From assembly GCA_031268215.1 (NCBI GenBank), contig JAIRXP010000033.1, positions 1,404 through 65,403 on the forward strand: DNA of 64,000 bases. The letters run 5' to 3'. Below are positions 8,281-63,289 of this stretch, one piece after another. Position 1 is the stretch's first letter. The number at the start of each line of letters is the position of its first letter. The stretch is from Bifidobacteriaceae bacterium (GTDB taxonomy: Bacteria > Actinomycetota > Actinomycetes > Actinomycetales > WQXJ01). The notes beneath the pieces are model-generated. The model saw only the letters and a program-made list of their open reading frames with translations. It was not told the origin of the DNA and searched no databases. Both the position numbers and the translations under genes were made by a program.

Positions 8281-8490
8281 AGATGGTCCTGATCCGCTTG
8301 GCCGGTCACAGCTAAATGGTAGGGGCCGCTCGTCGCGGCGGCCACCCGTTGGAGATGCCGCCGGTGGCACGGGCCACCCGGGTCGCTTGGGCCGCCCGTG
8401 CCACCTGAATCGTCCCCCTTGGACCGGGCCATCTGCTCAGGTGTTTCCCACCTGAGGGGACCCCGGCCCGGATGGGGCACCGGTCCTCCC

Positions 8491-48213: not shown

Positions 48214-48384
48214 GAATGCCTCTCATCATGCCGAATTGGCCTGGTCCTCTCCAACCATTCTTGTGTATGCGAAGAGCCCCGGATGCGGGACTGGCCGGTT
48301 CATTTTCCGTAAACCAGCCCCGCCGCCGGGGTGAGGATTGGGACTTACTCCCCTGGTTTCTTCAGGGGCCCGCCGGTGGCGGAT

Positions 48385-48419
48385 CCCTTGGGGGCCTGCC
48401 GTGAGCGGGTCCCCAAGGG
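48385..48419 (-). terminator. Intercistronic stem-loop between malE and malF (CCCTTGGGG ... CCCCAAGGG)
   Basis: A 9-bp stem read directly. An overlapping alternative stem, GTGAGC/GCTCAC, lies at 48401-48425. This could be a partial terminator or mRNA stabiliser, as in other malEFG operons. Confidence 0.35.
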
Positions 48420-48447
48420 GCTCACGCCGAAGGGCGGCCCGGCATCA

Positions 48448-50617: not shown

Positions 50618-51294
50618 GGCCAGTCAACGTCAACGTCCGCCGGACGGCCCTCCGAGGACAACCAGGAGTTGAAACTGACCGCCCAATCATGGTGAATCCG
50701 CTGCTGCCAGGAGTGCAGGGCGGCGGTGTCCATTGCCGCGACCCGTCCATACTGGCGTTCAATCACATCGAACACAGCGATCGCCTGGCGCACGTCCTCA
50801 AGCGCGTCATGCGGGTTGAGACTCGGAGCGACTCCATAGAACTGGACCAGGTCACCGAGCTTGCGCTTTCCTTTGCGATAGCGGTCCACTCCTCGGTCAA
50901 TCACCAACGGATCAATCACCGGCGCCACAGCCCCGCCCAATCGCTCCTCCAAGCTCGCCAACCGATAGCGCGCCAGTTCAGCATTGAGAATGCGCAGGTC
51001 ATAGGCCGCGTTGAAGGCCAAGATGGCCGCGCCCTGGGTCAGTGCCTCAGCCAAGGAAGAGGCGATCTCTTCCAGGGCACCGGCGGGCTCGCGCCCATCC
51101 GCACGAGCCCGCTCAGTAGTGATGCCGTGGACGGCCACCGCCTGCGGCGGAATCTCCACGCCAGGGTTGATCAGCCAAGTCATCGCCTCTTGCCCGCCCG
51201 CCGCCGTTCGTTTCACCAACGCCGCCGTGACAATCCGGTCTTGTCCAGGCTTGACGCCTGTCGTCTCAGTGTCGAATCCAACCAAATTCCTCAT
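50614..51294 (-). CDS. DEDDh 3'-5' exonuclease (DnaQ/epsilon-like domain protein)
   Basis: Starts MRNLVGFDTETTG (Exo I). Also FNAAYDLRIL (Exo II) and HDALEDV (Exo III, His type). The 138-aa Arg-rich ORF-track extension is rejected. Confidence 0.75.
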   Translation of the reverse strand: MRNLVGFDTETTGVKPGQDRIVTAALVKRTAAGGQEAMTWLINPGVEIPPQAVAVHGITTERARADGREPAGALEEIASSLAEALTQGAAILAFNAAYDLRILNAELARYRLASLEERLGGAVAPVIDPLVIDRGVDRYRKGKRKLGDLVQFYGVAPSLNPHDALEDVRQAIAVFDVIERQYGRVAAMDTAALHSWQQRIHHDWAVSFNSWLSSEGRPADVDVDWP

Positions 51295-52508: not shown

Positions 52509-52563
52509 AAGGCTGGGGCGCCGAGGACCTCGACGGCCCCACTTCCCGCTAGACAGCGAAAGA

Positions 52564-52600
52564 CCCCCGTCTGAACTGGTTGGACCAGCCCAGACGGGGG
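52564..52600. terminator. Bidirectional intrinsic terminator between convergent guaB3 and groES
   Basis: A 10-bp GC-rich stem, CCCCCGTCTG ... CAGACGGGGG, with an inner CTGGT/ACCAG stem. On the minus strand it is followed by TCTTTCGCT. Confidence 0.6.
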
Positions 52601-52627
52601 CTTGAATGCTGCGAGTTACTTGGCTGG

Positions 52628-53209: not shown

Positions 53210-54493
53210 GTGCGTATGGACCTGGAGGACATCGCCAAGCTAACCTCCGCCCAGGGGCGATACCTGCTGGACAGTCTGCCGGAGTACGCGCCTGAACTGG
53301 CGATCAAACTGGGAGATGGCCTGCGTCAACGGGGAATCGATCCCAAACTGGCGGCCGCCGCTCTGACCCAAAGCCGCCTGCGGCAACGAGCCAGAGCCAA
53401 GTTTGGCCAGTTCGCGGACCAAATGCTGTTCACCGATGAGGCACTGCAGCAAGCCACCCGGCTGGAAGTAGCTGCCCATCACGCCCAGCGCTATCAAGAG
53501 GCCGGGATGGATCGTCTCACCGATCTGACCGGCGGCATTGGCGGAGACGCCCTCGCCATGGCGGCGCTTGGGCTGAGGGTGACGGTCTACGAGCGCGATC
53601 CCGCCAGAGCAGCGGTCGCCCAGTTCAATCTGGCCGCCTTCCCTGAGGCGAAGGTCATCAATGAAGATTTCCGCACCAGCACCCAGAACTTGCGAGGAGC
53701 CCTGTTCGCGGATCCGTCGCGGCGCAATACCGATGGCAAACGGCAGTTCGACCCAAATGGTTATGATCCACCTCTACCCTTGCTGCTCGAATTGGCACGT
53801 GATCACCCAATGGGGATCAAGGTCGCCCCCGGCCTGCCGCACCGTCACATCCCCGCCCAGGCGGAGGCACAGTGGGTTTCCGTGGACGGCTCGCTGGTGG
53901 AAGCCGGACTATGGTTTGGGGCGCTGCGCTCGCCGGGAATTGATCCGACAGGCAGCGGCCCGCACCGGACCGCCTTGGCGCTTCGCCACGGCCGGGCCCA
54001 CCATCTCGCCGCTAACCCGGCCTGCCCAACCTCCGTGCCAACCTCCCAGCCAACCGCCCTGGCCGCGAGCGCCCCAGCGGGCCGTCTCAGCACCGGCCCG
54101 CTGAATGATTACATCTACGAACCGGACGACGCAGTGATCCGGGCCTCACTGATCGCCGAGGCCGCCGCCGGTCTTGGGTCCGCCAACTTGGTCAGCCCCA
54201 GAATCGCCTATGTCACCTCGTCCGCGAGAGTCACCGAAAGCCCATTCTTGACTGGCTACCAAGTCCAAGACTCTTTCCCGTTCTCCCTCAAACGGTTGAA
54301 GTCATATTTGCGTGAACACGGCATCGGGCAAGTCACCGTAAAGAAACGCGGAACCGCAGTTGACCCACATGACCTGCGCAGACGCCTCAATCTGAAGGGA
54401 AACGAGCCGGCCGTGGTAATCCTGACCCGGCTGGGTGCGCAACAATCGGTGGTGATCGCACAGGCCCTGCCAAAACCGAAGGAGTCCCCATGA
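53210..54493 (+). CDS. Class I SAM-dependent methyltransferase with a C-terminal THUMP-like domain
   Basis: LTDLTGGIGGDALAMAALG (SAM motif I), DPSRR, and a conserved C-terminal KKRG...LRRRL. An ATG at 53216 is an alternative start. Confidence 0.6.
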   Translation: MRMDLEDIAKLTSAQGRYLLDSLPEYAPELAIKLGDGLRQRGIDPKLAAAALTQSRLRQRARAKFGQFADQMLFTDEALQQATRLEVAAHHAQRYQEAGMDRLTDLTGGIGGDALAMAALGLRVTVYERDPARAAVAQFNLAAFPEAKVINEDFRTSTQNLRGALFADPSRRNTDGKRQFDPNGYDPPLPLLLELARDHPMGIKVAPGLPHRHIPAQAEAQWVSVDGSLVEAGLWFGALRSPGIDPTGSGPHRTALALRHGRAHHLAANPACPTSVPTSQPTALAASAPAGRLSTGPLNDYIYEPDDAVIRASLIAEAAAGLGSANLVSPRIAYVTSSARVTESPFLTGYQVQDSFPFSLKRLKSYLREHGIGQVTVKKRGTAVDPHDLRRRLNLKGNEPAVVILTRLGAQQSVVIAQALPKPKESP

Positions 54494-55632
54494 AGCTCCC
54501 GTTCGCCCAATCACCCCGCTCGACCGTCGGGATCGAGTGGGAGGTGGCGTTAGTAGACCGCGACTCCGGCGATTTGAGACAGGTCGCGCAAACCATACTC
54601 GACGCGGTCCGCCAGCCAGACGGCCAGCCGTACCCAGGCATCCTGCAGGAATTCCTGCTCAATACCGTCGAGGCCGCCTCCCGCCCGTCCACCACGATCA
54701 GCGCCGCGATTGGGGACATAGCCCAGCGGATTGACCTGATCAGAGCTGCGGCAGATCCCTTGCGCGTGGACCTGATGGCGGCCGGTACCCACCCCTTCGC
54801 GCGCTGGGAACTCCAGAAGGTCACCAATAAGGAGCGGTACCTGCGCCTGATCGACCGCACCCAATGGTGGGGCCGGCAGATGCTGATTTACGGTGTCCAC
54901 ACCCATGTCGGCGTGGAGGACCGCCGCAAGGTTCTGCCAATTATCCGCGCCCTGCTTTGCTATCTGCCGCATCTGCAGGCCCTATCTGCTTCGTCACCGT
55001 ACTGGGGCGGCGACGACACCGGCTACGCCTCGAACCGGGCGCTGCTCTTCCAACAACTGCCCACCGCAGGGCTTCCATTCCAGTTCAGCCAGTGGGATGA
55101 GCTGGAAGCTTATGTGGGCGACATGCTCCACACTGGCGTCATTGACGTGTTCAACGAGATCCGCTGGGACATCCGCCCCGCCCCGCACTTCGGCACCGTT
55201 GAAGTGCGGGTCTGTGATGCTTTGCCCACTTTGGGTGAAGTGGCCGCCGTTTCAGCTTTGGTGCAGTGCCTAGTGGAAGAGTTCTCCAGCCTCCTAGACC
55301 AGGGCGAAGACCTACCGACGATGCCGACCTGGTTTGTCCAGGAAAACAAGTGGCGTTCAGCGCGCTACGGCATGGAAGCCATAATCATCCTGGACCGCCA
55401 CGGCAACGAACAGTTAGTGACTGACCATTTGCCGGAAGTAATCGCCCGGCTAGAGCCCGTGGCGGCCCGCCTGAGCTGCCTCGAAGAACTCAGTCACATC
55501 CCCAGCATCATCCAAGCCGGTGCTTCCTACCAGCGCCAACGCGCTGTCGCCGCCGCGCACGGCGGCGACCTGGGCGCGGTAGTGGCAGCACTGGTCAGCG
55601 AAATGGAAACGGACCGTTTGAACAACGTCTGA
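54490..55632 (+). CDS. Carboxylate-amine ligase YbdK-type (glutamate--cysteine ligase family 2)
   Basis: TVGIEWEVALVD, HTHVGV, RWDIRPAPHFGTVEVRVCD. ATGA overlap with the upstream methyltransferase. Confidence 0.8.
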   Translation: MKLPFAQSPRSTVGIEWEVALVDRDSGDLRQVAQTILDAVRQPDGQPYPGILQEFLLNTVEAASRPSTTISAAIGDIAQRIDLIRAAADPLRVDLMAAGTHPFARWELQKVTNKERYLRLIDRTQWWGRQMLIYGVHTHVGVEDRRKVLPIIRALLCYLPHLQALSASSPYWGGDDTGYASNRALLFQQLPTAGLPFQFSQWDELEAYVGDMLHTGVIDVFNEIRWDIRPAPHFGTVEVRVCDALPTLGEVAAVSALVQCLVEEFSSLLDQGEDLPTMPTWFVQENKWRSARYGMEAIIILDRHGNEQLVTDHLPEVIARLEPVAARLSCLEELSHIPSIIQAGASYQRQRAVAAAHGGDLGAVVAALVSEMETDRLNNV

Positions 55633-55698
55633 CCGGCGCTTAGTCAGTCGGCCTAGTGGTCTTCACGTGGAAGTCGAAACCCACCACGCCAGCTCCCC

Positions 55699-55797
55699 AG
55701 CTCCACCAGGTGAACAGAACCTTGACGAATGAACCGAGCTTTTCATACTGGGGTCCCCACAAGAGATTCGGCCGCAGGCCGAAGATTTTGTGGGGCT
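55699..55797 (-). repeat. Copy A of a ~99-nt hairpin-bearing repeat, immediately 3' of tsaD
   Basis: The reverse complement aligns with 56893-56991 (13 mismatches in 99, counted by hand). It contains the hairpin CCCCACAA..TTCGGCC-GCA-GGCCGAA..TTGTGGGG at 55755-55795. Confidence 0.8.
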
Positions 55798-55799
55798 GT

Positions 55800-56843
55800 C
55801 TAAGTGGCCAGGAGTTGGGTTAATGGCATGGAAGAATCGGCGCCAATCCCCAGGCCGGAGGGCTCCAGCCCGTGCCGAAGGGCATGGACTCCGGCAGCGG
55901 CGATCATCGCCCCATTGTCGGTACAGAACTCAACCGGCGGAATCCGCAGGTCCAGACCCGCCGCCGCGAACCGTTCCGCCGCCTTGTCTCGCAGTTGGGA
56001 ATTGGCGGAAAACCCGCCGCCAATCACCAGCGTGCCAAGCCCCTGGTCCCGCGCCGCGGTGATGGTCTTGGCCGTCAGCACATCCGCCACCGCTTCAGCG
56101 AAGCAGGCCGCGAAGTCCTCTACGGGTACGGACCGTCCCTCATCCTGGGCCGCCTCAATCCAGCGGGCGGCCGCCGTCTTCAAACCGGAAAACGAGAAAT
56201 CATAAGGATGCTTTTCCAGATCCTGGCGTCTGGTCAAAGCACGAGGGAAGACAGTCCAACCCGGGTTACCGGTCCGCGCCAGCCGGTCAATGTGTGGCCC
56301 GGCTGGGTACGGCAACCCCAGCAGCCGGCCAACCTTGTCGAAAGCCTCGCCGGCGGCATCGTCCAGAGTTTGTCCCAACTCCGTCACCACCGGGCCGTCA
56401 ATCACCAGCAACGACGAATGTCCGCCGCTCACCACCAGCGCCAGCACCGGCCCATCAAAGGCCCCGTGAACCAACTGATCCACCAACGCGTGCCCAATCA
56501 CATGGTTCACACCATAAAGCGGCTTACCCAGTGCGAAGGCGAGGGCCTTCGCTGCCGCCAGGCCAACCGCCAAGGACCCGATCAGGCCTGGCCCGGCGGT
56601 CACGGCCACCGCATCGACCTCCTCCAGGCCGACGCGACTGGTCTGGAGCGCCATCTCAATAGTTGGCATCAACGCCTCTAGGTGGGCCCGCGAAGCTACT
56701 TCCGGCACTATCCCGCCAAAGCGCGCATGCTCCTCAACTGACGACGCAACAACATCATGGAGCAGCCCAAACCCACGGGCTAACGCCACGCCAGTCTCAT
56801 CGCAGGAGGTTTCAATCCCAAGCACCAAAGGGTCGTTAGACAC
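55800..56843 (-). CDS. tsaD: tRNA N6-adenosine threonylcarbamoyltransferase
   Basis: [22 protein letters not shown] (metal-binding His pair), VSGGHS. GTG start. Confidence 0.95.
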
Positions 56844-56892
56844 GCAGTCACCCTAATGCCTTCACTTCAAGCACCGGCACTCTTCCGCTAGC

Positions 56893-56991
56893 AGCCCCGC
56901 AAAGTCTTCGGCCTACGGCCGAATCCTTTGCGGGGACCGCAGTATGAAGAACCCGGCTCATTCGTCAAGGTTCTGTTCACTTAGTGGAGCT
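56893..56991 (+). repeat. Copy B of the ~99-nt hairpin-bearing repeat, 5' of tsaD in inverted orientation relative to copy A
   Basis: Hairpin CCCCGCAAAG..TTCGGCC-TAC-GGCCGAA..CTTTGCGGGG at 56895-56935. It shares the arm ...CAGTATGAA...TCATTCGTCAAGGTTCTGTTCAC...GTGGAGCT with copy A. Confidence 0.8.
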
Positions 56992-57058
56992 AGATGGCTC
57001 GCAGCCGTACCTGCCGCGCTGGCGGCTGGGGTCAACCCCAGGCAAGACTGGGCGCGGG

Positions 57059-57213
57059 TGTCACGGTTGGTGTCTTTTCTGCGGCAGGGCAGGCCGCCAT
57101 TGTCACAGTCGGTGTCTTTTCGGATCGACGCCCTTCCGAGCCCACAGCCCTGACCTGGGCTTTCACCGGGTGCGCGGCGGAGTCATCGAAGAAGAAAGAC
57201 ACCAAACGCGACA
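57059..57213. repeat. Three copies of a ~21-nt motif TGTCRC-GTYGGTGTCTTT(T)C (two direct, one inverted) in the rimI-tsaD spacer
   Basis: 57059-57079 tgtcacggttggtgtcttttc; 57101-57121 tgtcacagtcggtgtcttttc; 57194-57213 is the reverse complement, tgtcgcgtttggtgtctttc. The direct copies are spaced 42 nt apart. Confidence 0.6.
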
Positions 57214-57346
57214 CTGGTGCTCTGCCTGCGGTTGGAAAAAGCCAAGACCGTGGATGTGGTGAGGGCGGCGCAGTCACGGACGCCCGGAAGGGGACCCGCG
57301 GACCGCTTCTGGCTGACTACGGGTCCAGTTAGAGCCACGCCTGGGA

Positions 57347-57784
57347 TCAGGTCTCCAGTCGCATGATGATGGCGTCCCGCCCCGACGGTTGGTAGTAACC
57401 CTGCCTCCGACCAATCGGTTCAAAGCCCAGTGAACGGTACAGGCCAATCGCCGGTTCCGCCCCAACAGCGACCTCCAAAGTGACCCACCGCGAACCGGCC
57501 CGGCGGGATTCTGCCAGCAAGGCCTCCATCAGCCGGCGGCCTAATCCCCGGCGTTGGTAGCCGGGGTCAATCGCGACGGTCATCACTTCGGTCGAATCAA
57601 GGCCCAGGTACACGCCGCCGTAGCCCATCACTACGCCGGCCTCCTGGGACACCAAGTAACGGCGCCCGGCGCCCGCGAGTTCCTCCTCCAGCATCTCGCG
57701 GGTCCACGCCTCCGGCCCGAAACACAAGCCCTCCAGCTCCATCAGGCGGTCAATGTCCGCCGTCGTCGCCTCGCGGTGGCTCAT
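57347..57784 (-). CDS. rimI: Ribosomal-protein-alanine N-acetyltransferase (GNAT)
   Basis: GNAT motif A YQRRGLGRRLMEAL. Conserved position between tsaB and tsaD, with an ATGA-type overlap with tsaB. Confidence 0.85.
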   Translation of the reverse strand: MSHREATTADIDRLMELEGLCFGPEAWTREMLEEELAGAGRRYLVSQEAGVVMGYGGVYLGLDSTEVMTVAIDPGYQRRGLGRRLMEALLAESRRAGSRWVTLEVAVGAEPAIGLYRSLGFEPIGRRQGYYQPSGRDAIIMRLET

Positions 57785-58479
57785 GGAGTGGCCCTCTTCT
57801 GCGGCGCCGGCGGAGTTATGTCCGGCCGGCGCAAGTAGAGCGGCTGGTAGGAGACATCGCCTCCCTTGGCGGCTCGGACCGCCGCCAGCCGAGCCAGCAC
57901 AGCCGGATCAACACCAGCCGGCTCGCCAGTCAGCGGACCAAGCTGCTCAGGGTATTCCGCGGCGCCGCCGCCAACCACGATTGACGCGGGTGGTGCGACT
58001 CCCGGCCGGCTAACCGCTGGCCCCTCCAGACGGGTCAAGCCATCGATGTCCCCCGGAACATCTACCCTGTAACGGGCCCAATAGACCTCACGCCGCTTGG
58101 CGTCCAAAGCCGCCAGCATCGAAACGCCAGATTCCAGGCTGAACCGCCCGGCGGCATCGGCGGCCAAGACGTCCAGATCGCTGACCCCCCAAACCGGCTG
58201 TCCCAGTGCGAAGCCCAGAGCTTGGGCGGTCGCTAGGGCTATGCGCAGGCCGGTGTACGGCGCCGGCCCGCGCCCAACGGCAATCGCCGCCAGATCTCCA
58301 GGGGCCAGACCTGCCTCGACGAGTAACTGGGATATGAGCGGAAGCATTGACTCGACGTGGGCTCTTGGCGAGCTGTGGGCCAGCTTCCGGTCCGGCTGCC
58401 CAGGGGTAGCCAAACCCACGGCGCTGGGGCCAGCGGCACTGATACCGAGAACAGGCCCCGGCAAAATTGAATCGCTCAT
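57781..58479 (-). CDS. tsaB: tRNA threonylcarbamoyladenosine biosynthesis protein TsaB
   Basis: 232 aa: AVGRGPAPYTGLRIALATAQALGFALGQPVWGVSDL, and a C-terminal PLYLRRPD. Confidence 0.85.
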   Translation of the reverse strand: MSDSILPGPVLGISAAGPSAVGLATPGQPDRKLAHSSPRAHVESMLPLISQLLVEAGLAPGDLAAIAVGRGPAPYTGLRIALATAQALGFALGQPVWGVSDLDVLAADAAGRFSLESGVSMLAALDAKRREVYWARYRVDVPGDIDGLTRLEGPAVSRPGVAPPASIVVGGGAAEYPEQLGPLTGEPAGVDPAVLARLAAVRAAKGGDVSYQPLYLRRPDITPPAPQKRATP

Positions 58480-58633: not shown

Positions 58634-58661
58634 TTGTCTTGTGTGACAAGGTGCGTACAAT
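58634..58661 (+). promoter_or_regulatory. Candidate promoter (-35 TTGTCT, -10 TACAAT) with an embedded palindrome CTTGT-GTG-ACAAG (possible antitoxin operator)
   Basis: Hexamers and the 13-nt palindrome (58638-58650) were read directly. An AGGAGG RBS (58683-58688) and a GTG start follow. Confidence 0.4.
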
Positions 58662-58692
58662 GGGAGCACGGATCAAACGTCAGGAGGACATC

Positions 58693-59019
58693 GTGTCAGA
58701 GTCGCGGCTGAGCGTTCGCGTGGACGCCGAAGTCAAACAAGAAGCGGAGGCCGTCTTCAAGCGAGCCGGGCTCGGCCTGTCCAGTGGGATAAACGTCTAC
58801 CTCCGCCGAGTGGTCCAGGACCAGCGCATCCCGTTCGAACTCGCCGGCGCCACCGCCAAGCCCACCGCGGTCACGCGATTGGAAGACGACGCCCGCCGGG
58901 TGGTCCTCGACGCCCGCGCTGAGAACTGGGCCGCCGGGGCCCCGGTGGCGTTGTACGACACAGAACTCGACCGGCCCTACCTGCGCTATCCAGACGGGCA
59001 CACGAACTTCGACCTATGA
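58693..59019 (+). CDS. RelB/DinJ family antitoxin-like protein with a C-terminal extension
   Basis: The N-terminal ribbon-helix-helix pattern SRLSVRVDAEVKQEAEAVFKRAGLGLSSGINVYLRRVVQDQRIPFEL is typical of DinJ/RelB. GTG at 58693 lies 5 nt after AGGAGG. ATGA overlap with the downstream toxin gene. Confidence 0.6.
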   Translation: MSESRLSVRVDAEVKQEAEAVFKRAGLGLSSGINVYLRRVVQDQRIPFELAGATAKPTAVTRLEDDARRVVLDARAENWAAGAPVALYDTELDRPYLRYPDGHTNFDL

Positions 59020-59570
59020 CCGGGCCGCCCAGGTTGTTGGTCTTTGCCGGCCCGAACGGCTCCGGCAAGACGACCATCGCCCGCGCATGGGCGCCCGCGG
59101 GGATCTACATCAACGCCGATGACATAAAGCTGGCCACTGATTGCTCGGACCTGGAAGCCGCACAAACAGCCGAGCAGATCCGCAAGTCTTGTTTGGCTGG
59201 CCGGCTGGATTTCACCTTCGAGACGGTCTTGTCGACCGACCGAAACCTGCGGCTGCTACGCACCGCCCAAGACGTTGGGTACAAGATCACCGGCGTGTTC
59301 GTAATGACGGTTTCCGCGGAGCTGAATGTGGCGCGCGTCATGAGCCGGACCGCGGCAGGCGGGCACAGCGTCCCGGCGGACAAGACCAGGTCCCGCTACG
59401 CCGGTTCTTTGGCGAACCTCCCGGAGTTCGCCCGCTTGTGCGACGAGGTCTACGTCTTCGACAACACGGATCAGCCCACCGTCGTGTTCACCAAAGCAGC
59501 CGAAGACGAATCCTTCTACCCGACCGAAATGTGGCCCGCTCCAACACTGGACAGGCTGTTGGACCGCTAG
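59016..59570 (+). CDS. Zeta-toxin family P-loop kinase (COG4185-like)
   Basis: Walker A FAGPNGSGKTT, INADDI, FTFETVLS, and GGHSVPADKTRSRY, all characteristic of short zeta-toxin-like proteins. Confidence 0.65.
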   Translation: MTGPPRLLVFAGPNGSGKTTIARAWAPAGIYINADDIKLATDCSDLEAAQTAEQIRKSCLAGRLDFTFETVLSTDRNLRLLRTAQDVGYKITGVFVMTVSAELNVARVMSRTAAGGHSVPADKTRSRYAGSLANLPEFARLCDEVYVFDNTDQPTVVFTKAAEDESFYPTEMWPAPTLDRLLDR

Positions 59571-61345: not shown

Positions 61346-63289
61346 CTACGGCAGAGCCACGCCCCGCCAGCGTTCACCCACGCCACGGACAGTGGCCCGG
61401 CGGACCTCCCCGCCGCCAGCCCCGCGAGCGCGGTCAAGCTGGATTTCCAAACGGTCCTGGGATAGCTGTTCCGCCATGCCCATACCCCATTCGACCACGG
61501 TGACGGCCTCCTCTAGCTCGGTATCCAGATCAAGGTCATCTAGCTGCGCCAGAGTCTCCAGCCGATAGGCGTCAACGTGCAGCAGACCGGGCCCCTGGCC
61601 TGGGAGCCTGTCAGACAACAGGCCCCCAGGCGCGCCAACAGTGTCTGCTTGCTGCGTTTCCGCTGGCGAGAGCCCTGCTCCCCCCGCGTCAACACAGGCG
61701 GAGGGTGTTGGACAACACCCTCCTGGGAGCCTGTCAGGCAACAGGCCCCCAGGCGCTCCAACAGTGTTTGTTTGCTGCGTTTCCGCTGGCGAGAGCCCTG
61801 CTCCCCCCGCGTCAACACAGGCGGAGGGTGTTGGACAACACCCTCCTAGCGAACCAAAGTTGGCCGCGTCCAGGCCAGCTCCAATCTGGCGGTCCTCCTT
61901 CAGGACCGCCAGAACAGCGTCCGGCTCACCGTCCCCACCACCAGCGCTTTCCAGACCGCATCCAGCCCTGAACGAGTTCACCACATCCACCAAGTCCTGG
62001 GTCGTGGTCGCCTCATCAGTAGATAGGTATACGGTGTCCGCGTCGTGGAGCCAAAGTTTCAGCCCCAACCCGTTGGCGGCTTCAACCACCGCCTCGGCGC
62101 GCCCAGGCACCCGCACAGCCAAGGTGTCAAACATTGGCCCCGGCCGCACCTCGACACTCGGCCCAGCCGCCGTCTTGTGGCCGATGCCGTCCAAGGCCTT
62201 TCGTAGCCCTTCCGCCGCCGCGTTTACCCCGGTCGCGATCCGCCGGAGTCCATCTGGCCCATGCCACACTCCGTACATAGCGGCCATCACCGCCAGCAGT
62301 ACTTGAGCGGTGCAAACATTCGAGGTCGCCTTGTCCCGCCTGATGTGCTGTTCACGGGTAACCAAGGCCAAGCGCAAGGCCGGATCGCCTTGGGCATCCC
62401 GGCTCAGCCCCACCAACCGGCCGGGCAATTGCCGGACCAGTTGTTGGCGCACCGCCATATAAGCGGCATGCGGGCCGCCGAATCCCATTGGCACACCGAA
62501 GCGCTGGGTTGAACCGACCGCCACATCCGCGCCCGCCGCCCCCGGCGATTGAACCAGCGCCAACATCAATGGGTCCGCACCCACCGCTAGCAGCGCCCCC
62601 GCGCCATGGGCCATCTCCGCCGCCGGGCCTAACCCGGCTAGCCGCCCGGAAGCCCCCTGGTACTGGATATACAATCCGGCCGCACCTTCCAGCGCGGAAG
62701 CGTCTGGCGCCTCCGGATCAAAGTCCACCAACTCAATCCCGAGCGGTTCGGCCCGGGTTTCCAAGACGGCCCGAACCTGCGGAAACACGTCCACGTCAAG
62801 CGCGAACCGGGACCGGCCCCCACGCGCGACCCGGTGGCACAGGAGCATCGCCTCCGCGGCCGCCGTGGCCTCATCCAGAAGTGACGCGTTCGCCACTGGC
62901 AGGCCGGTCAATTCAGAGATCATGGTCTGGAAGACGAACAGTGCCTCCAGACGGCCCTGCGAAATCTCTGGCTGATAGGGCGTATAGGCGGTGTACCAGG
63001 AGGGATTCTCCATGATTCCGCGGCGCAACACCGATGGCGTAATGGTCCGGTAATAGCCCAAGCCAATCATCGGCCGGCCAGGGGTGTTCAGCCCCGCCAG
63101 CTCCGCCAGTCGTTCAATCGCGGCAGCCTCACTGAGCGGCGGCGGCAGTTCTGGCGGGCCTGCCCTGAGCGGCGCGGGCAGCGCCTTTTCCATGATCCGC
63201 TGGCCTTCGCCGAGCCCAAGAACGCGGCGCACGTGAGCGGCGCTGTCTCCTGCCAACCCCAGGTGACGGCTGGTGAACCGCTCCCCCAC
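61346..63289 (-). CDS. Chimeric ORF: glycine dehydrogenase (GcvP) N-terminal half + two 41-aa repeats + TsaE C-terminal half (probable deletion/fusion product)
   Basis: The first ~450 aa carry GcvP N-domain motifs (ENPSWYTAYTPYQPEISQGRLEALFVFQTM, ANASLLDEATAAAEAM). aa 482-563 are the tandem repeat. aa 564-647 read LLHVDAYRL...AVTVVEWGMG..., which is the TsaE C-terminal half. The GcvP PLP-lysine half and the TsaE Walker A are both absent. Confidence 0.7.
   Translation of the reverse strand: MGERFTSRHLGLAGDSAAHVRRVLGLGEGQRIMEKALPAPLRAGPPELPPPLSEAAAIERLAELAGLNTPGRPMIGLGYYRTITPSVLRRGIMENPSWYTAYTPYQPEISQGRLEALFVFQTMISELTGLPVANASLLDEATAAAEAMLLCHRVARGGRSRFALDVDVFPQVRAVLETRAEPLGIELVDFDPEAPDASALEGAAGLYIQYQGASGRLAGLGPAAEMAHGAGALLAVGADPLMLALVQSPGAAGADVAVGSTQRFGVPMGFGGPHAAYMAVRQQLVRQLPGRLVGLSRDAQGDPALRLALVTREQHIRRDKATSNVCTAQVLLAVMAAMYGVWHGPDGLRRIATGVNAAAEGLRKALDGIGHKTAAGPSVEVRPGPMFDTLAVRVPGRAEAVVEAANGLGLKLWLHDADTVYLSTDEATTTQDLVDVVNSFRAGCGLESAGGGDGEPDAVLAVLKEDRQIGAGLDAANFGSLGGCCPTPSACVDAGGAGLSPAETQQTNTVGAPGGLLPDRLPGGCCPTPSACVDAGGAGLSPAETQQADTVGAPGGLLSDRLPGQGPGLLHVDAYRLETLAQLDDLDLDTELEEAVTVVEWGMGMAEQLSQDRLEIQLDRARGAGGGEVRRATVRGVGERWRGVALP
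61601..61846. repeat. Tandem duplication, 2 x 123 bp (4 mismatches), each unit ending in a perfect 11-bp-stem hairpin GGAGGGTGTTG-GA-CAACACCCTCC
   Basis: Units at 61601-61723 and 61724-61846 were aligned by hand. The hairpins lie at 61700-61723 and 61823-61846. Confidence 0.9.

Follow-up and report, generated by a model that had tools for sequence, protein, structure and literature searches.

A probable MITE-like hairpin repeat flanks tsaD as an inverted pair in an uncultured Bifidobacteriaceae-like lineage

In a 64-kb stretch of DNA from a Bifidobacteriaceae bacterium (the whole of which we refer to as the window), the tsaD gene is bracketed by two inverted copies of a short hairpin-bearing repeat, here called element A. 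With a probability that we put at roughly 0.6, element A is a MITE- or REP-like non-autonomous repeat that was inserted independently into two hypervariable spacers, and the inverted layout around tsaD would then be a by-product of two insertions, not a device. This reading draws on a third copy at an unrelated locus, on the structure-preserving pattern of substitutions among the three copies, and on the absence of the element from five related tsaD loci.

Geometry of the repeat pair and its stem-loop

A repeat finder identified an inverted pair at 55688-55798 and 56892-57002 (111 nt, 84% complementary, 1093 nt between), which is the sole long non-coding inverted repeat within the window. BLASTN aligned the cores of the two copies at 87% identity over 100 nt (55699-55798 versus 56892-56991, E = 1e-30), and the 13 mismatches in these 100 columns comprise 12 transitions and one transversion. 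An earlier note on this DNA had described ~99-nt inverted repeats with 13 mismatches and a conserved outer arm; its mismatch count proved exact, and the longest run of identity between the copies, which spans 23 nt (TCATTCGTCAAGGTTCTGTTCAC), was confirmed. We assigned element A to the strand on which its hairpin pairs best and its promoter-like motif reads, which gave the following features.

55688..55800, plus strand: element A, copy L (covariance model R1, 139.8 bits)
56890..57002, minus strand: element A, copy R (covariance model R1, 142.5 bits)
55755-55795, plus strand: stem-loop of copy L (-29.1 kcal/mol on the plus strand, -23.8 on the minus strand)
56895-56935, minus strand: stem-loop of copy R (-33.1 kcal/mol on the minus strand, -30.3 on the plus strand)
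55722..55749, plus strand: sigma-70-like motif TTGACG-16 nt-CATACT in copy L (consensus match), directed into the hairpin and antisense to tsaD
56941..56968, minus strand: sigma-70-like motif TTGACG-16 nt-CATACT in copy R (consensus match), directed toward tsaD in the sense orientation

Element A has a total length of ~100-113 nt, made up of a ~55-nt non-palindromic arm and a 41-nt G+C-rich stem-loop. The stop of a YbdK-type ligase gene, at 55632, lies on one side of copy L and the tsaD stop codon, at 55802-55800, on the other. Copy R forms the tsaD-proximal portion of the 503-nt spacer between rimI and tsaD, its hairpin end lying 48 nt upstream of the tsaD GTG. The hairpins of L and R, 41 nt each, are both on the side facing tsaD, as the earlier note had seen, and consist of a 10-bp lower stem, a 2x2 internal loop, a 7-bp upper stem (TTCGGCC/GGCCGAA, the inner stem that the note had reported for both copies) and a 3-nt loop. 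In copy L the internal loop is a tandem G.A, the loop is GCA, and the stem-loop ends 4 nt from the tsaD stop codon; copy R has the same architecture, with two stem pairs altered on both sides relative to L. When the 64 kb is cut into non-overlapping 45-nt segments and these are ordered by folding energy, the two hairpins come 4th and 13th.

The compensatory change from A-T to G-C to which the earlier note had drawn attention is present in the L/R alignment, together with a second compensatory pair, also A-T to G-C, which lies two pairs away from the internal loop, and with a further stem change from G.U to A-U. Taken alone, L and R carry a weak structural signal: if G.U counts as a pair, every pair survives in 8% of randomly drawn sets of six transitions. 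With the third copy described below, 17 of 17 pairs hold in each copy (51/51 stem cells), and the six variable stem columns are exactly three covarying pairs that take A-U, G-C and G-U states (P ~5e-4, column-pairing combinatorial test over three copies). A shuffle control for covariation, uninformative with three sequences, reached the observed value in 76 of 500 shuffles. Because the variable stem columns form exactly three covarying pairs and all pairs are kept, we conclude from the sequence comparison that the hairpin of element A is under selection; the earlier note had argued as much from two copies, and the third strengthens its case. Nothing in the window matched Rfam at gathering score, and a permissive search of 55600-57300 (E up to 10) returned chance-level matches only. 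A tRNA/tmRNA scan found none.

A third copy and the tsaD locus in relatives

A related metagenome contig yielded a third copy, G (L025:1222-1336), which lies inside gcvP and thus at a locus unrelated to tsaD. Core identities are 91% for L/G, 88% for R/G and 87% for L/R; since G is closer to both L and R than these are to one another, L and R are not each other's closest relatives, and the three values therefore argue for independent insertions. Relative to the solved GcvP structure 9uz6, G lies in frame within a 366-nt insertion in gcvP and is read through inside an intact 658-codon ORF, at a position where the gcvP frame is the only stop-free one of six and G+C by codon position is not coding-like. 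The pattern GATTCGGCCGYAGGCCGAAGA is invariant in all three copies.

Run at full sensitivity, covariance model R1 found no copy in the 64-kb window beyond L and R. A match of 15.6 bits to the same model at L025:1024-1135 was rejected as a copy of element A, being explained by the hairpin of an adjacent copy of a second repeat, family B. Exact-word scans with a 20-mer in 185,579 species genomes and with an 18-mer in 241 million metagenome records gave one and 18 matches, respectively, none of them homologous beyond the seed, and these scans are of low power, the third copy differing from both seeds by one base. An exact-word scan of a viral collection with two patterns gave 0 matches, and BLASTN against plasmids and phages gave none. 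That the known copies number three, at three loci in two contigs, counts against the insertion reading. The best reading of this distribution is a dispersed family that is private to an uncultured Bifidobacteriaceae-like lineage.

We then compared the tsaD locus with those of five relatives whose TsaD is 81-85% identical, and the following features are needed for that comparison.

55800..56843, minus strand: tsaD (NCBIfam TIGR03723, 8e-117), in an order and orientation common to five relatives
56850..56855, minus strand: TAGGGT box, a TANNNT hexamer 6 nt upstream of the tsaD GTG, from sequence comparison
57003..57346, no strand assigned: remainder of the lineage-specific spacer from rimI to copy R, which has no counterpart in relatives

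The tsaD gene, with tsaB-rimI upstream and the convergent YbdK-type ligase gene downstream, is ancestral at its present position and is not part of element A. In the five relatives the element is found neither at the orthologous sites nor elsewhere in 84 kb, and the gap between rimI and tsaD measures 4-91 nt, versus 503 nt here. In one relative both tsaD junctions have received whole genes, and the spacer between tsaD and ybdK contains private repeats of its own kind in each relative. Both spacers beside tsaD would best be explained as insertion hot spots in the clade. Within the remaining spacer at 57003..57346, a ~21-nt motif ending GGTGTCTTT(T)C occurs three times. A TANNNT box is located at the same distance from the start in the window and in four relatives, making TAGGGT a candidate -10 box of a putative leaderless tsaD transcript; because of this conserved box of its own, tsaD need not depend on the tsaB-rimI promoter.

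At 100-113 nt and non-coding, element A falls within the size range of MITEs (under ~500 bp), and it shows presence/absence polymorphism at orthologous sites, being absent from the five related tsaD loci. The earlier note's option of a MITE/REP-type element thus stands in its broad sense, upheld by the third copy elsewhere and the vacant sites in relatives, and fails where it would imply membership among REPs. The terminal inverted repeats of element A are weak (~9 nt, YAGCYCCRC, with 6-8/9 positions matched per copy), and one of their arms doubles as the foot of the hairpin. The hairpin end is abutted directly by CTAG in R and G and by CTAAG in L; CTAG is rare (observed/expected 0.35) and occurs at 56888 and 56990 in copy R. 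The outer end of L and G reads CCAG, which aligns as part of the element. We saw no clean target-site duplication in the three copies, one end of the element being poorly defined, and the 58 window ORFs scanned revealed no matching transposase; these points, like the weak terminal repeats, count against insertion. The rare tetranucleotide at the hairpin end speaks for it, and so does repeat clustering: a diverged copy of family B directly abuts G in L025, and clustering of repeats has been described for the pneumococcal BOX, RUP and SPRITE elements (PMC10969869).

Under two independent insertions, copy R would have landed upstream of the tsaD start in a ~450-nt lineage-specific insertion block that now parts rimI from tsaD, and copy L right against the tsaD stop codon. 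Compensatory substitutions keep the stem-loop intact, most likely because the element needs it, whether as a structure recognised in mobilisation or for giving harmless and stable transcripts. Local effects, as an RNA 3'-end hairpin, as an insulator and possibly as a promoter, may follow from these positions: tsaD and the ybdK-like gene converge on the L hairpin, which may cap the 3' ends of both transcripts, the R hairpin may partly insulate tsaD from rimI read-through, and tsaD is probably served by its own conserved -10 box and possibly also by the TTGACG-16-CATACT motif of the element.

Terminator, promoter and other readings of the pair

The pair could instead have arisen by local duplication, a hairpin 3' of tsaD having been copied once, inverted, upstream of the gene, with both copies immobile and kept as terminators or insulators. 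We consider this unlikely. The two copies do lie within 1.3 kb of each other and are the sole copies in 64 kb, the L hairpin sits exactly between two convergent genes, and other strong intergenic hairpins are found at gene 3' ends (e.g. 52558-52602, between convergent genes). However, the third copy is located at an unrelated locus and is closer to L than R is, and because the 658-codon ORF reads through G, the hairpin is not an efficient terminator in the orientation of G. The full stem is followed by no U-tract, there being no T-run after it; the inner 7-bp stem of L, taken alone, is followed by GATTTTG. The hairpins also differ in placement: L adjoins gene 3' ends, R precedes a gene and G is inside an ORF.

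Comparably improbable is that element A is primarily a carrier of a promoter or the gene of a small RNA. On this view TTGACG-16-CATACT would be a real promoter, from which transcription would start at the foot of the hairpin, with R giving tsaD a leadered transcript stabilised by a 5' hairpin and L giving an antisense RNA over the tsaD 3' end. The two motifs are the only sigma-70-like matches in the 2-kb region versus 0.3 expected, and their hexamers and 16-nt spacing are invariant in 3/3 copies while the spacer is variable at four positions. The hairpin is 2.8-5.6 kcal/mol more stable on the would-be transcribed strand in 3/3 copies, and this strand has G.U as its intermediate pairs and a tandem G.A as its internal loop. 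Correia and other elements provide documented cases of promoters within MITEs (PMC10969869). Against this, the motif is a 9/12 match of a kind that is as frequent across the window as chance predicts, and the consensus scans for promoters and for terminators, both at chance density, are uninformative for the genome as a whole. Conservation of the hexamers in three copies is not significant (P ~0.09, hand calculation from variable columns), the choice of strand depends on two wobble states only, a conserved -10-like box is already present at tsaD, and the element matches no Rfam family.

We give still less credence to an RNA panhandle, in which a putative rimI-R-tsaD-L transcript would pair its inverted copies into a ~100-bp duplex serving as an RNase III substrate, and the tsaD mRNA would be cut out or destabilised by analogy with rRNA processing stalks or Correia hairpins. 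In a predicted fold of the 1315-nt minus-strand RNA, 103 pairs join both elements, and the modelled duplex reaches -193 kcal/mol, whereas the local folds reach -56 and -42. There are documented cases in which RNase III cleaves MITE hairpins (PMC10969869). However, the substitutions preserve the local hairpins and not the complementarity between copies, leaving 13 uncompensated differences between the arms. The third copy, moreover, is solitary, and co-transcriptional folding together with translation of tsaD would favour local hairpins.

The earlier note had also raised an invertible switch, with recombination between the arms flipping tsaD relative to the tsaB-rimI promoter, and we regard this as very improbable. 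In switches such as fimS and hin, short and almost identical repeats enclose a promoter, and a site-specific recombinase is encoded next to them. The tsaD segment resembles them in being a discrete segment bracketed by inverted repeats, but has none of their other features: the 58 window ORFs scanned, which include all neighbours within 5 kb, yielded no recombinase, integrase or transposase domain, the arms differ at 13% of positions and share no identical run longer than 23 nt, and the segment carries a housekeeping t6A gene together with that gene's own -10-like box. The orientation of tsaD is identical in the five relatives. The layout is also mirror-symmetric, so that inversion would change nothing, because it would rebuild the same promoter-hairpin-gene layout.

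A gene for a small protein of ~30-55 residues (e.g. the ORFs 55656-55823, plus strand, and 56980-56888, minus strand) is effectively refuted: the same frame is open in L and R, but both strands have several open frames, as is to be expected from the local G+C content, only 2-4 of the 10-11 altered codons in the frames compared are synonymous (hand count from translations), a six-frame peptide query against 5.8 billion proteins matches only the gcvP read-through, and NCBI places no CDS between tsaD and rimI, where the protein accessions are consecutive. A coding element A was rejected because it has no match to a Pfam or NCBIfam family and no excess of synonymous substitutions.

Comparison with known repeat families and with family B

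Family B is a second hairpin repeat of 123 nt, found in frame in tsaE and gcvP, and its copies in the window are as follows.

61599..61849, minus strand: family B, two tandem copies of the 123-nt hairpin repeat, read in frame

The two tandem copies stand between the N-half of gcvP and the C-half of tsaE, at what appears to be an assembly join. A relationship between A and B was considered and rejected, as the local alignment scores lie within the range of shuffled sequences.

Correia elements, the MITEs of Neisseria, are non-coding, ~100-150 bp long, carry sigma-70-like promoters, form RNA hairpins and can alter the expression of their neighbours (PMC10969869). Element A is likewise short, non-coding and located beside genes, with a sigma-70-like motif and a hairpin. 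However, the terminal inverted repeats of a Correia element measure 26 bp and fold the element as a whole, which also has a TA duplication and an IHF site and is present in >100 copies per genome, whereas the hairpin of element A is local (41 nt, at one end), its ends are imperfect over ~9 nt, and three copies are known. The two share no sequence similarity, and element A is not a Correia element.

In Streptococcus pneumoniae, the small repeat SPRITE has a terminator-like hairpin at its core, and SPRITE, BOX and RUP cluster by inserting beside or into each other in spacers (PMC10969869). Element A resembles them in abutting family B and in the position of copy R within a block of other insertions, and differs in belonging to another phylum, in its unrelated sequence and in having a hairpin without a U-tract. 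REPs are 20-40 nt long, usually present in >100 copies per genome and regularly spaced in BIMEs (PMC2817692). Like REPs and REPINs, which are mobilised by RAYTs, element A forms imperfect-palindrome hairpins in spacers, there often as inverted pairs, with the structure kept by covariation. Unlike them, it is ~100 nt long with a 55-nt non-palindromic arm and has two copies in 64 kb, 1.1 kb apart; neither a 20-40-nt palindromic unit nor a copy number >100 was found, which sets it outside the REP/REPIN-RAYT group.

Rickettsia palindromic elements (RPEs) occur both in spacers and in frame in housekeeping genes, where they are read through as an extra peptide (PMC10969869). The third copy of element A and the B copies resemble them in lying in frame in gcvP and tsaE. 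Among the A copies such in-frame insertion in a coding gene is seen in the third only, as both copies around tsaD are intergenic; RPEs, in addition, belong to Rickettsia, measure about 150 bp and form families that are each recognised by a conserved peptide-coding consensus, and both host and sequence are unrelated as far as could be judged. A tentative and more far-reaching interpretation, which we consider possible but doubtful, is that A and B together are an actinobacterial counterpart of RPEs, that is, mobile stem-loop repeats in spacers and reading frames, with a regulatory layer at tsaD. The conserved stem-loop would then be the substrate of mobilisation, the elements would have colonised housekeeping spacers and the tsaE and gcvP frames without destroying genes, and the pair around tsaD might regulate it by way of convergent promoters in the two elements or of an RNA panhandle of 100 bp.

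Prokaryotic MITE-like elements have seldom been described in Actinobacteria: a 2024 review of MITEs makes no mention of this phylum (PMC10969869), and a full-text literature search for MITEs in Bifidobacterium returned nothing relevant. Element A offers a concrete, testable family of small hairpin repeats in an uncultured actinobacterial lineage. Together with its sister family B it is found around and inside t6A and glycine-cleavage genes and shows structure-preserving evolution, and if the interrupted genes are functional, Rickettsia-type in-frame "selfish DNA" would extend to another phylum. Such repeats can also mislead gene callers, and they appear to have caused the assembly join in this contig at 61.6-61.85 kb of the window.

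Copies of element A at tsaD and in a related contig

The tsaD gene is bracketed by two copies of element A, copy L on its 3' side and copy R on its 5' side. A repeat finder returned them as a single inverted pair (55688-55798 and 56892-57002; 111 nt, 84% complementary, spaced 1093 nt), and the 64-kb window has no second long inverted repeat that is non-coding. Their 100-nt cores (55699-55798 versus 56892-56991) align at 87% identity (BLASTN, E = 1e-30) with exactly the 13 mismatches that the earlier note had counted by hand over ~99 nt, 12 of them transitions. The long hairpin described there on the tsaD side of both copies is likewise present, as a 41-nt stem-loop consisting of a 10-bp stem, a 2x2 internal loop, a 7-bp TTCGGCC/GGCCGAA stem and a 3-nt loop. 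In a folding-energy ranking of every non-overlapping 45-nt window in the 64 kb, the two hairpins come 4th and 13th.

Features of the tsaD locus (window positions)
54490..55632, plus strand: YbdK/GCS2-type carboxylate-amine ligase gene, convergent with tsaD
55688-55800, plus strand: copy L of element A
56843..55800, minus strand: tsaD, bracketed by L and R
56890-57002, minus strand: copy R of element A
57784..57347, minus strand: rimI, with a 503-nt gap to tsaD
58479..57781, minus strand: tsaB

The NCBI protein accessions of tsaD and rimI are consecutive, so that no annotated CDS lies in the gap between them. Further upstream, a RelB-like antitoxin and Zeta-toxin-like pair (58639-59570, plus strand) is inserted between EamA and tsaB and is absent there in relatives. 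Very stable G+C-rich hairpins also occur elsewhere (52558-52602, 48381-48425, 51076-51120 and 8362-8406; -33 to -38 kcal/mol per 45 nt); at least the first, lying between convergent genes and followed by TCTTTC, is probably a genuine bidirectional terminator.

Exact-word scans of genome, metagenome and viral collections for element A gave chance matches only, a result that says little about copy number because the third copy, G, is one base off both scan seeds. BLASTN against plasmids and phages gave no match, and a three-copy covariance model run with filters off found no further copy in the window. Copy G came from an indirect search in which every stop-free peptide from the six frames of L and R was queried against 5.8 billion proteins. 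The one match, protein P0125, is encoded on a 2426-bp metagenome contig (L025, JGI sample 3300042636) holding a full copy at 1222-1336, inside gcvP. Core identities are 91% for L/G, 88% for R/G and 87% for L/R; L and R are thus not mutual closest relatives, which favours two separate insertion events over a single local duplication in inverted orientation. Nearly every substitution between copies is a transition (12:1, 9:0 and 11:1 for the three pairs of copies), a bias exceeding what compensatory pairs alone explain.

Selection on the hairpin and other content of the element

On the strand that reads L plus, R minus and G minus, all 51 stem cells form standard pairs, and three stem pairs covary, two of them showing all three states A-U, G-C and G-U. 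The six variable stem columns make up exactly three pairs (P = 5e-4 given six variable among 34), supporting the earlier proposal that the hairpin itself is under selection. L and R alone are weak evidence, as 8% of random six-transition sets keep all pairs with G.U allowed, and a shuffle control for covariation is uninformative at three sequences. On this same strand the hairpin gains 2.8-5.6 kcal/mol of stability in every copy, since its intermediate pairs there are G.U instead of A.C and its internal loop holds tandem G.A; these few events hint that one particular strand exists in single-stranded form, as RNA or DNA. Beyond the stem, variation reaches 9 of 56 columns, a rate similar to that of the stems, and selection is not demonstrable there. 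The outer arm, previously called conserved, proved no more so than the rest, and the 23-nt run identical in L and R is broken in copy G.

Judged by sequence, element A is non-coding; both strands have several open frames, its substitutions lack a synonymous excess, and neither protein family matches nor a tRNA-like gene were found in it. Nor does it correspond to any Rfam family. Just two sigma-70-like matches occur in the 2-kb region, both of them TTGACG-16 nt-CATACT, one in L and one in R; each is directed into its own hairpin and at tsaD, that of R in sense and that of L in antisense orientation. Both hexamers and their spacing are invariant in the three copies while the spacer sequence varies, but matches of equal quality occur at chance density over the window and the hexamer conservation is not significant (P ~0.09), leaving this putative promoter a lead, not a finding. 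No U-tract follows the full stem, and the copy G hairpin is read through within an intact ORF and is therefore not an efficient terminator in that orientation.

Insertion at the tsaD junctions

Five related tsaD loci were compared (TsaD 81-85% identical), all of which keep the tsaB-rimI-tsaD order and the convergent GCS2 gene. The rimI-tsaD gap is 4-91 nt in these relatives versus 503 nt in the window, and neither BLASTN nor the covariance model found element A in any of the five loci; on this comparison, element A at tsaD is a lineage-specific insertion, not ancestral to the locus. The final ~48 nt ahead of the tsaD start remain recognisably ancestral, which, together with the short gaps in relatives, makes copy R the tsaD-proximal part of a ~450-nt insertion block. 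The window (TAGGGT, 56850-56855, minus strand) and four relatives (L002, L003, L023 and L024) share a TANNNT hexamer exactly 6 nt ahead of the tsaD GTG. Its resemblance, by inference from known actinobacterial promoters, to the -10 box of a leaderless transcript suggests that tsaD may be expressed as leaderless mRNA from its own promoter, even with only 21-36 nt to rimI. At the other junction, copy L directly adjoins the tsaD stop codon, and TsaD ends ...LLAT-TAG versus ...LVA-TGA in relatives; the last codon and stop seem to have been remodelled by the insertion.

In one relative, L023, a Lactamase_B gene separates rimI from tsaD, and a gene for mannitol dehydrogenase separates tsaD from GCS2 (L023:5809-6519 and L023:7729-9195). 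These are the same two junctions as those of R and L, and both are thus recurrent insertion sites. The tsaD-GCS2 spacer is hypervariable, with private, unrelated short repeats in every relative (L002:11045-11277, L003:11045-11150, L022:11066-11412), examples being CACAATCACCGTCCCCT, which L003 carries about four times, and the ~100-nt G+C-rich repeats of L022. The lineage-specific rimI-tsaD spacer of the window holds three copies of a ~21-nt motif, TGTCACRGTYGGTGTCTTTTC (57059-57079 and 57101-57121, plus strand; 57195-57218, inverted), found nowhere else in the window, one of which overlaps a terminator-like site ~125 nt past rimI.

These data are best explained, with a probability of about 0.6, by a small, lineage-specific repeat that depends on its hairpin and inserted twice independently. 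The bracketing of tsaD would then be an incidental outcome, and the copies might act locally as an RNA 3'-end cap, an insulator or possibly a promoter. Alternatively, one minus-strand RNA running over R, tsaD and L could pair both copies into a panhandle; its minimum-energy fold joins them in a 103-bp duplex (-193 kcal/mol versus -56 and -42 for the local folds). Such a duplex would be open to RNase III-type cleavage, which is known for Correia hairpins (PMC10969869). However, the substitutions preserve pairing within each hairpin but not between copies, and copy G is solitary, making this model improbable. An invertible tsaD segment, also raised in the earlier note, finds no support: no recombinase domain turned up among the 58 ORFs scanned in the window, the arms differ by 13% and share no identical run longer than 23 nt, tsaD has the same orientation in all relatives, the cargo is a housekeeping gene with its own -10-like box inside the segment, and inverting so mirror-symmetric a layout would give back tsaD with a promoter-like motif and hairpin on one side and an antisense copy on the other, so that nothing switches.

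A second repeat family and likeness to known elements

Family B, a second repeat of 123 nt with a hairpin at each end, occurs in the window as a tandem pair (61599-61849, minus strand; 97% identical) read in frame as a 41-residue peptide. L025 carries two more: one at 44-171, which matches the window copies at 95% identity, and an inverted one at 1092-1229 (77% identical) that directly adjoins copy G. Both in the window and in L025, B lies in frame in the gcvP inter-domain linker, and it is also in frame in tsaE, where protein P0126 is the N-terminal half of TsaE running into B at the end of a separate 14,472-bp contig. Where the solved GcvP structure 9uz6 has 7 residues, L025 has the 366-nt gcvP insertion that holds in-frame B and copy G; of the insertion's six frames only the gene's own lacks stops, and its G+C by codon position does not look coding. 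This behaviour resembles that of Rickettsia palindromic elements.

A long window ORF (63289..61346, minus strand), downstream of gcvT and gcvH, joins the gcvP N-terminal half, B-B and the tsaE C-terminal half, which means that either the contig was joined or collapsed at the B repeats, as is probable, or real B-B recombination deleted DNA. L025 has a second in-frame gcvP insertion near the C-terminus (1895-2080; 62 residues, Gly/Ala-rich), which the solved GcvP structure lacks and in which two of three frames are open.

Element A is like other small hairpin-bearing interspersed bacterial repeats (MITEs such as Correia; SPRITE, BOX, RUP), and copy G behaves like a Rickettsia palindromic element. 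Of the suggestion that A is a MITE or REP, its small size, non-coding sequence and presence/absence polymorphism fit, as may its dispersal (three copies in two contigs), but it falls outside the REP definition, as it does that of Correia elements, and shows generic MITE features only in part. The finding would gain in interest if in-frame colonisation of tsaE and gcvP is compatible with function or if transcripts show the pair regulating tsaD.

No transposase, integrase or recombinase domain was found in any of these 58 ORFs. The ends of A share a weak ~9-nt inverted repeat, YAGCYCCRC. CTAG abuts the hairpin end in R and G (CTAAG in L), and the other end has CTAG in R and CCAG in L and G, aligning as part of the element. 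IS630/Tc1-type elements target TA or CTAG (PMC2170065), and by analogy either is a possible target of element A. CTAG is scarce in the window (73 observed, 211 expected, observed/expected 0.35), as are TTAA (0.18) and CTAA (0.35), and both families have CTAG at their ends despite this depletion.
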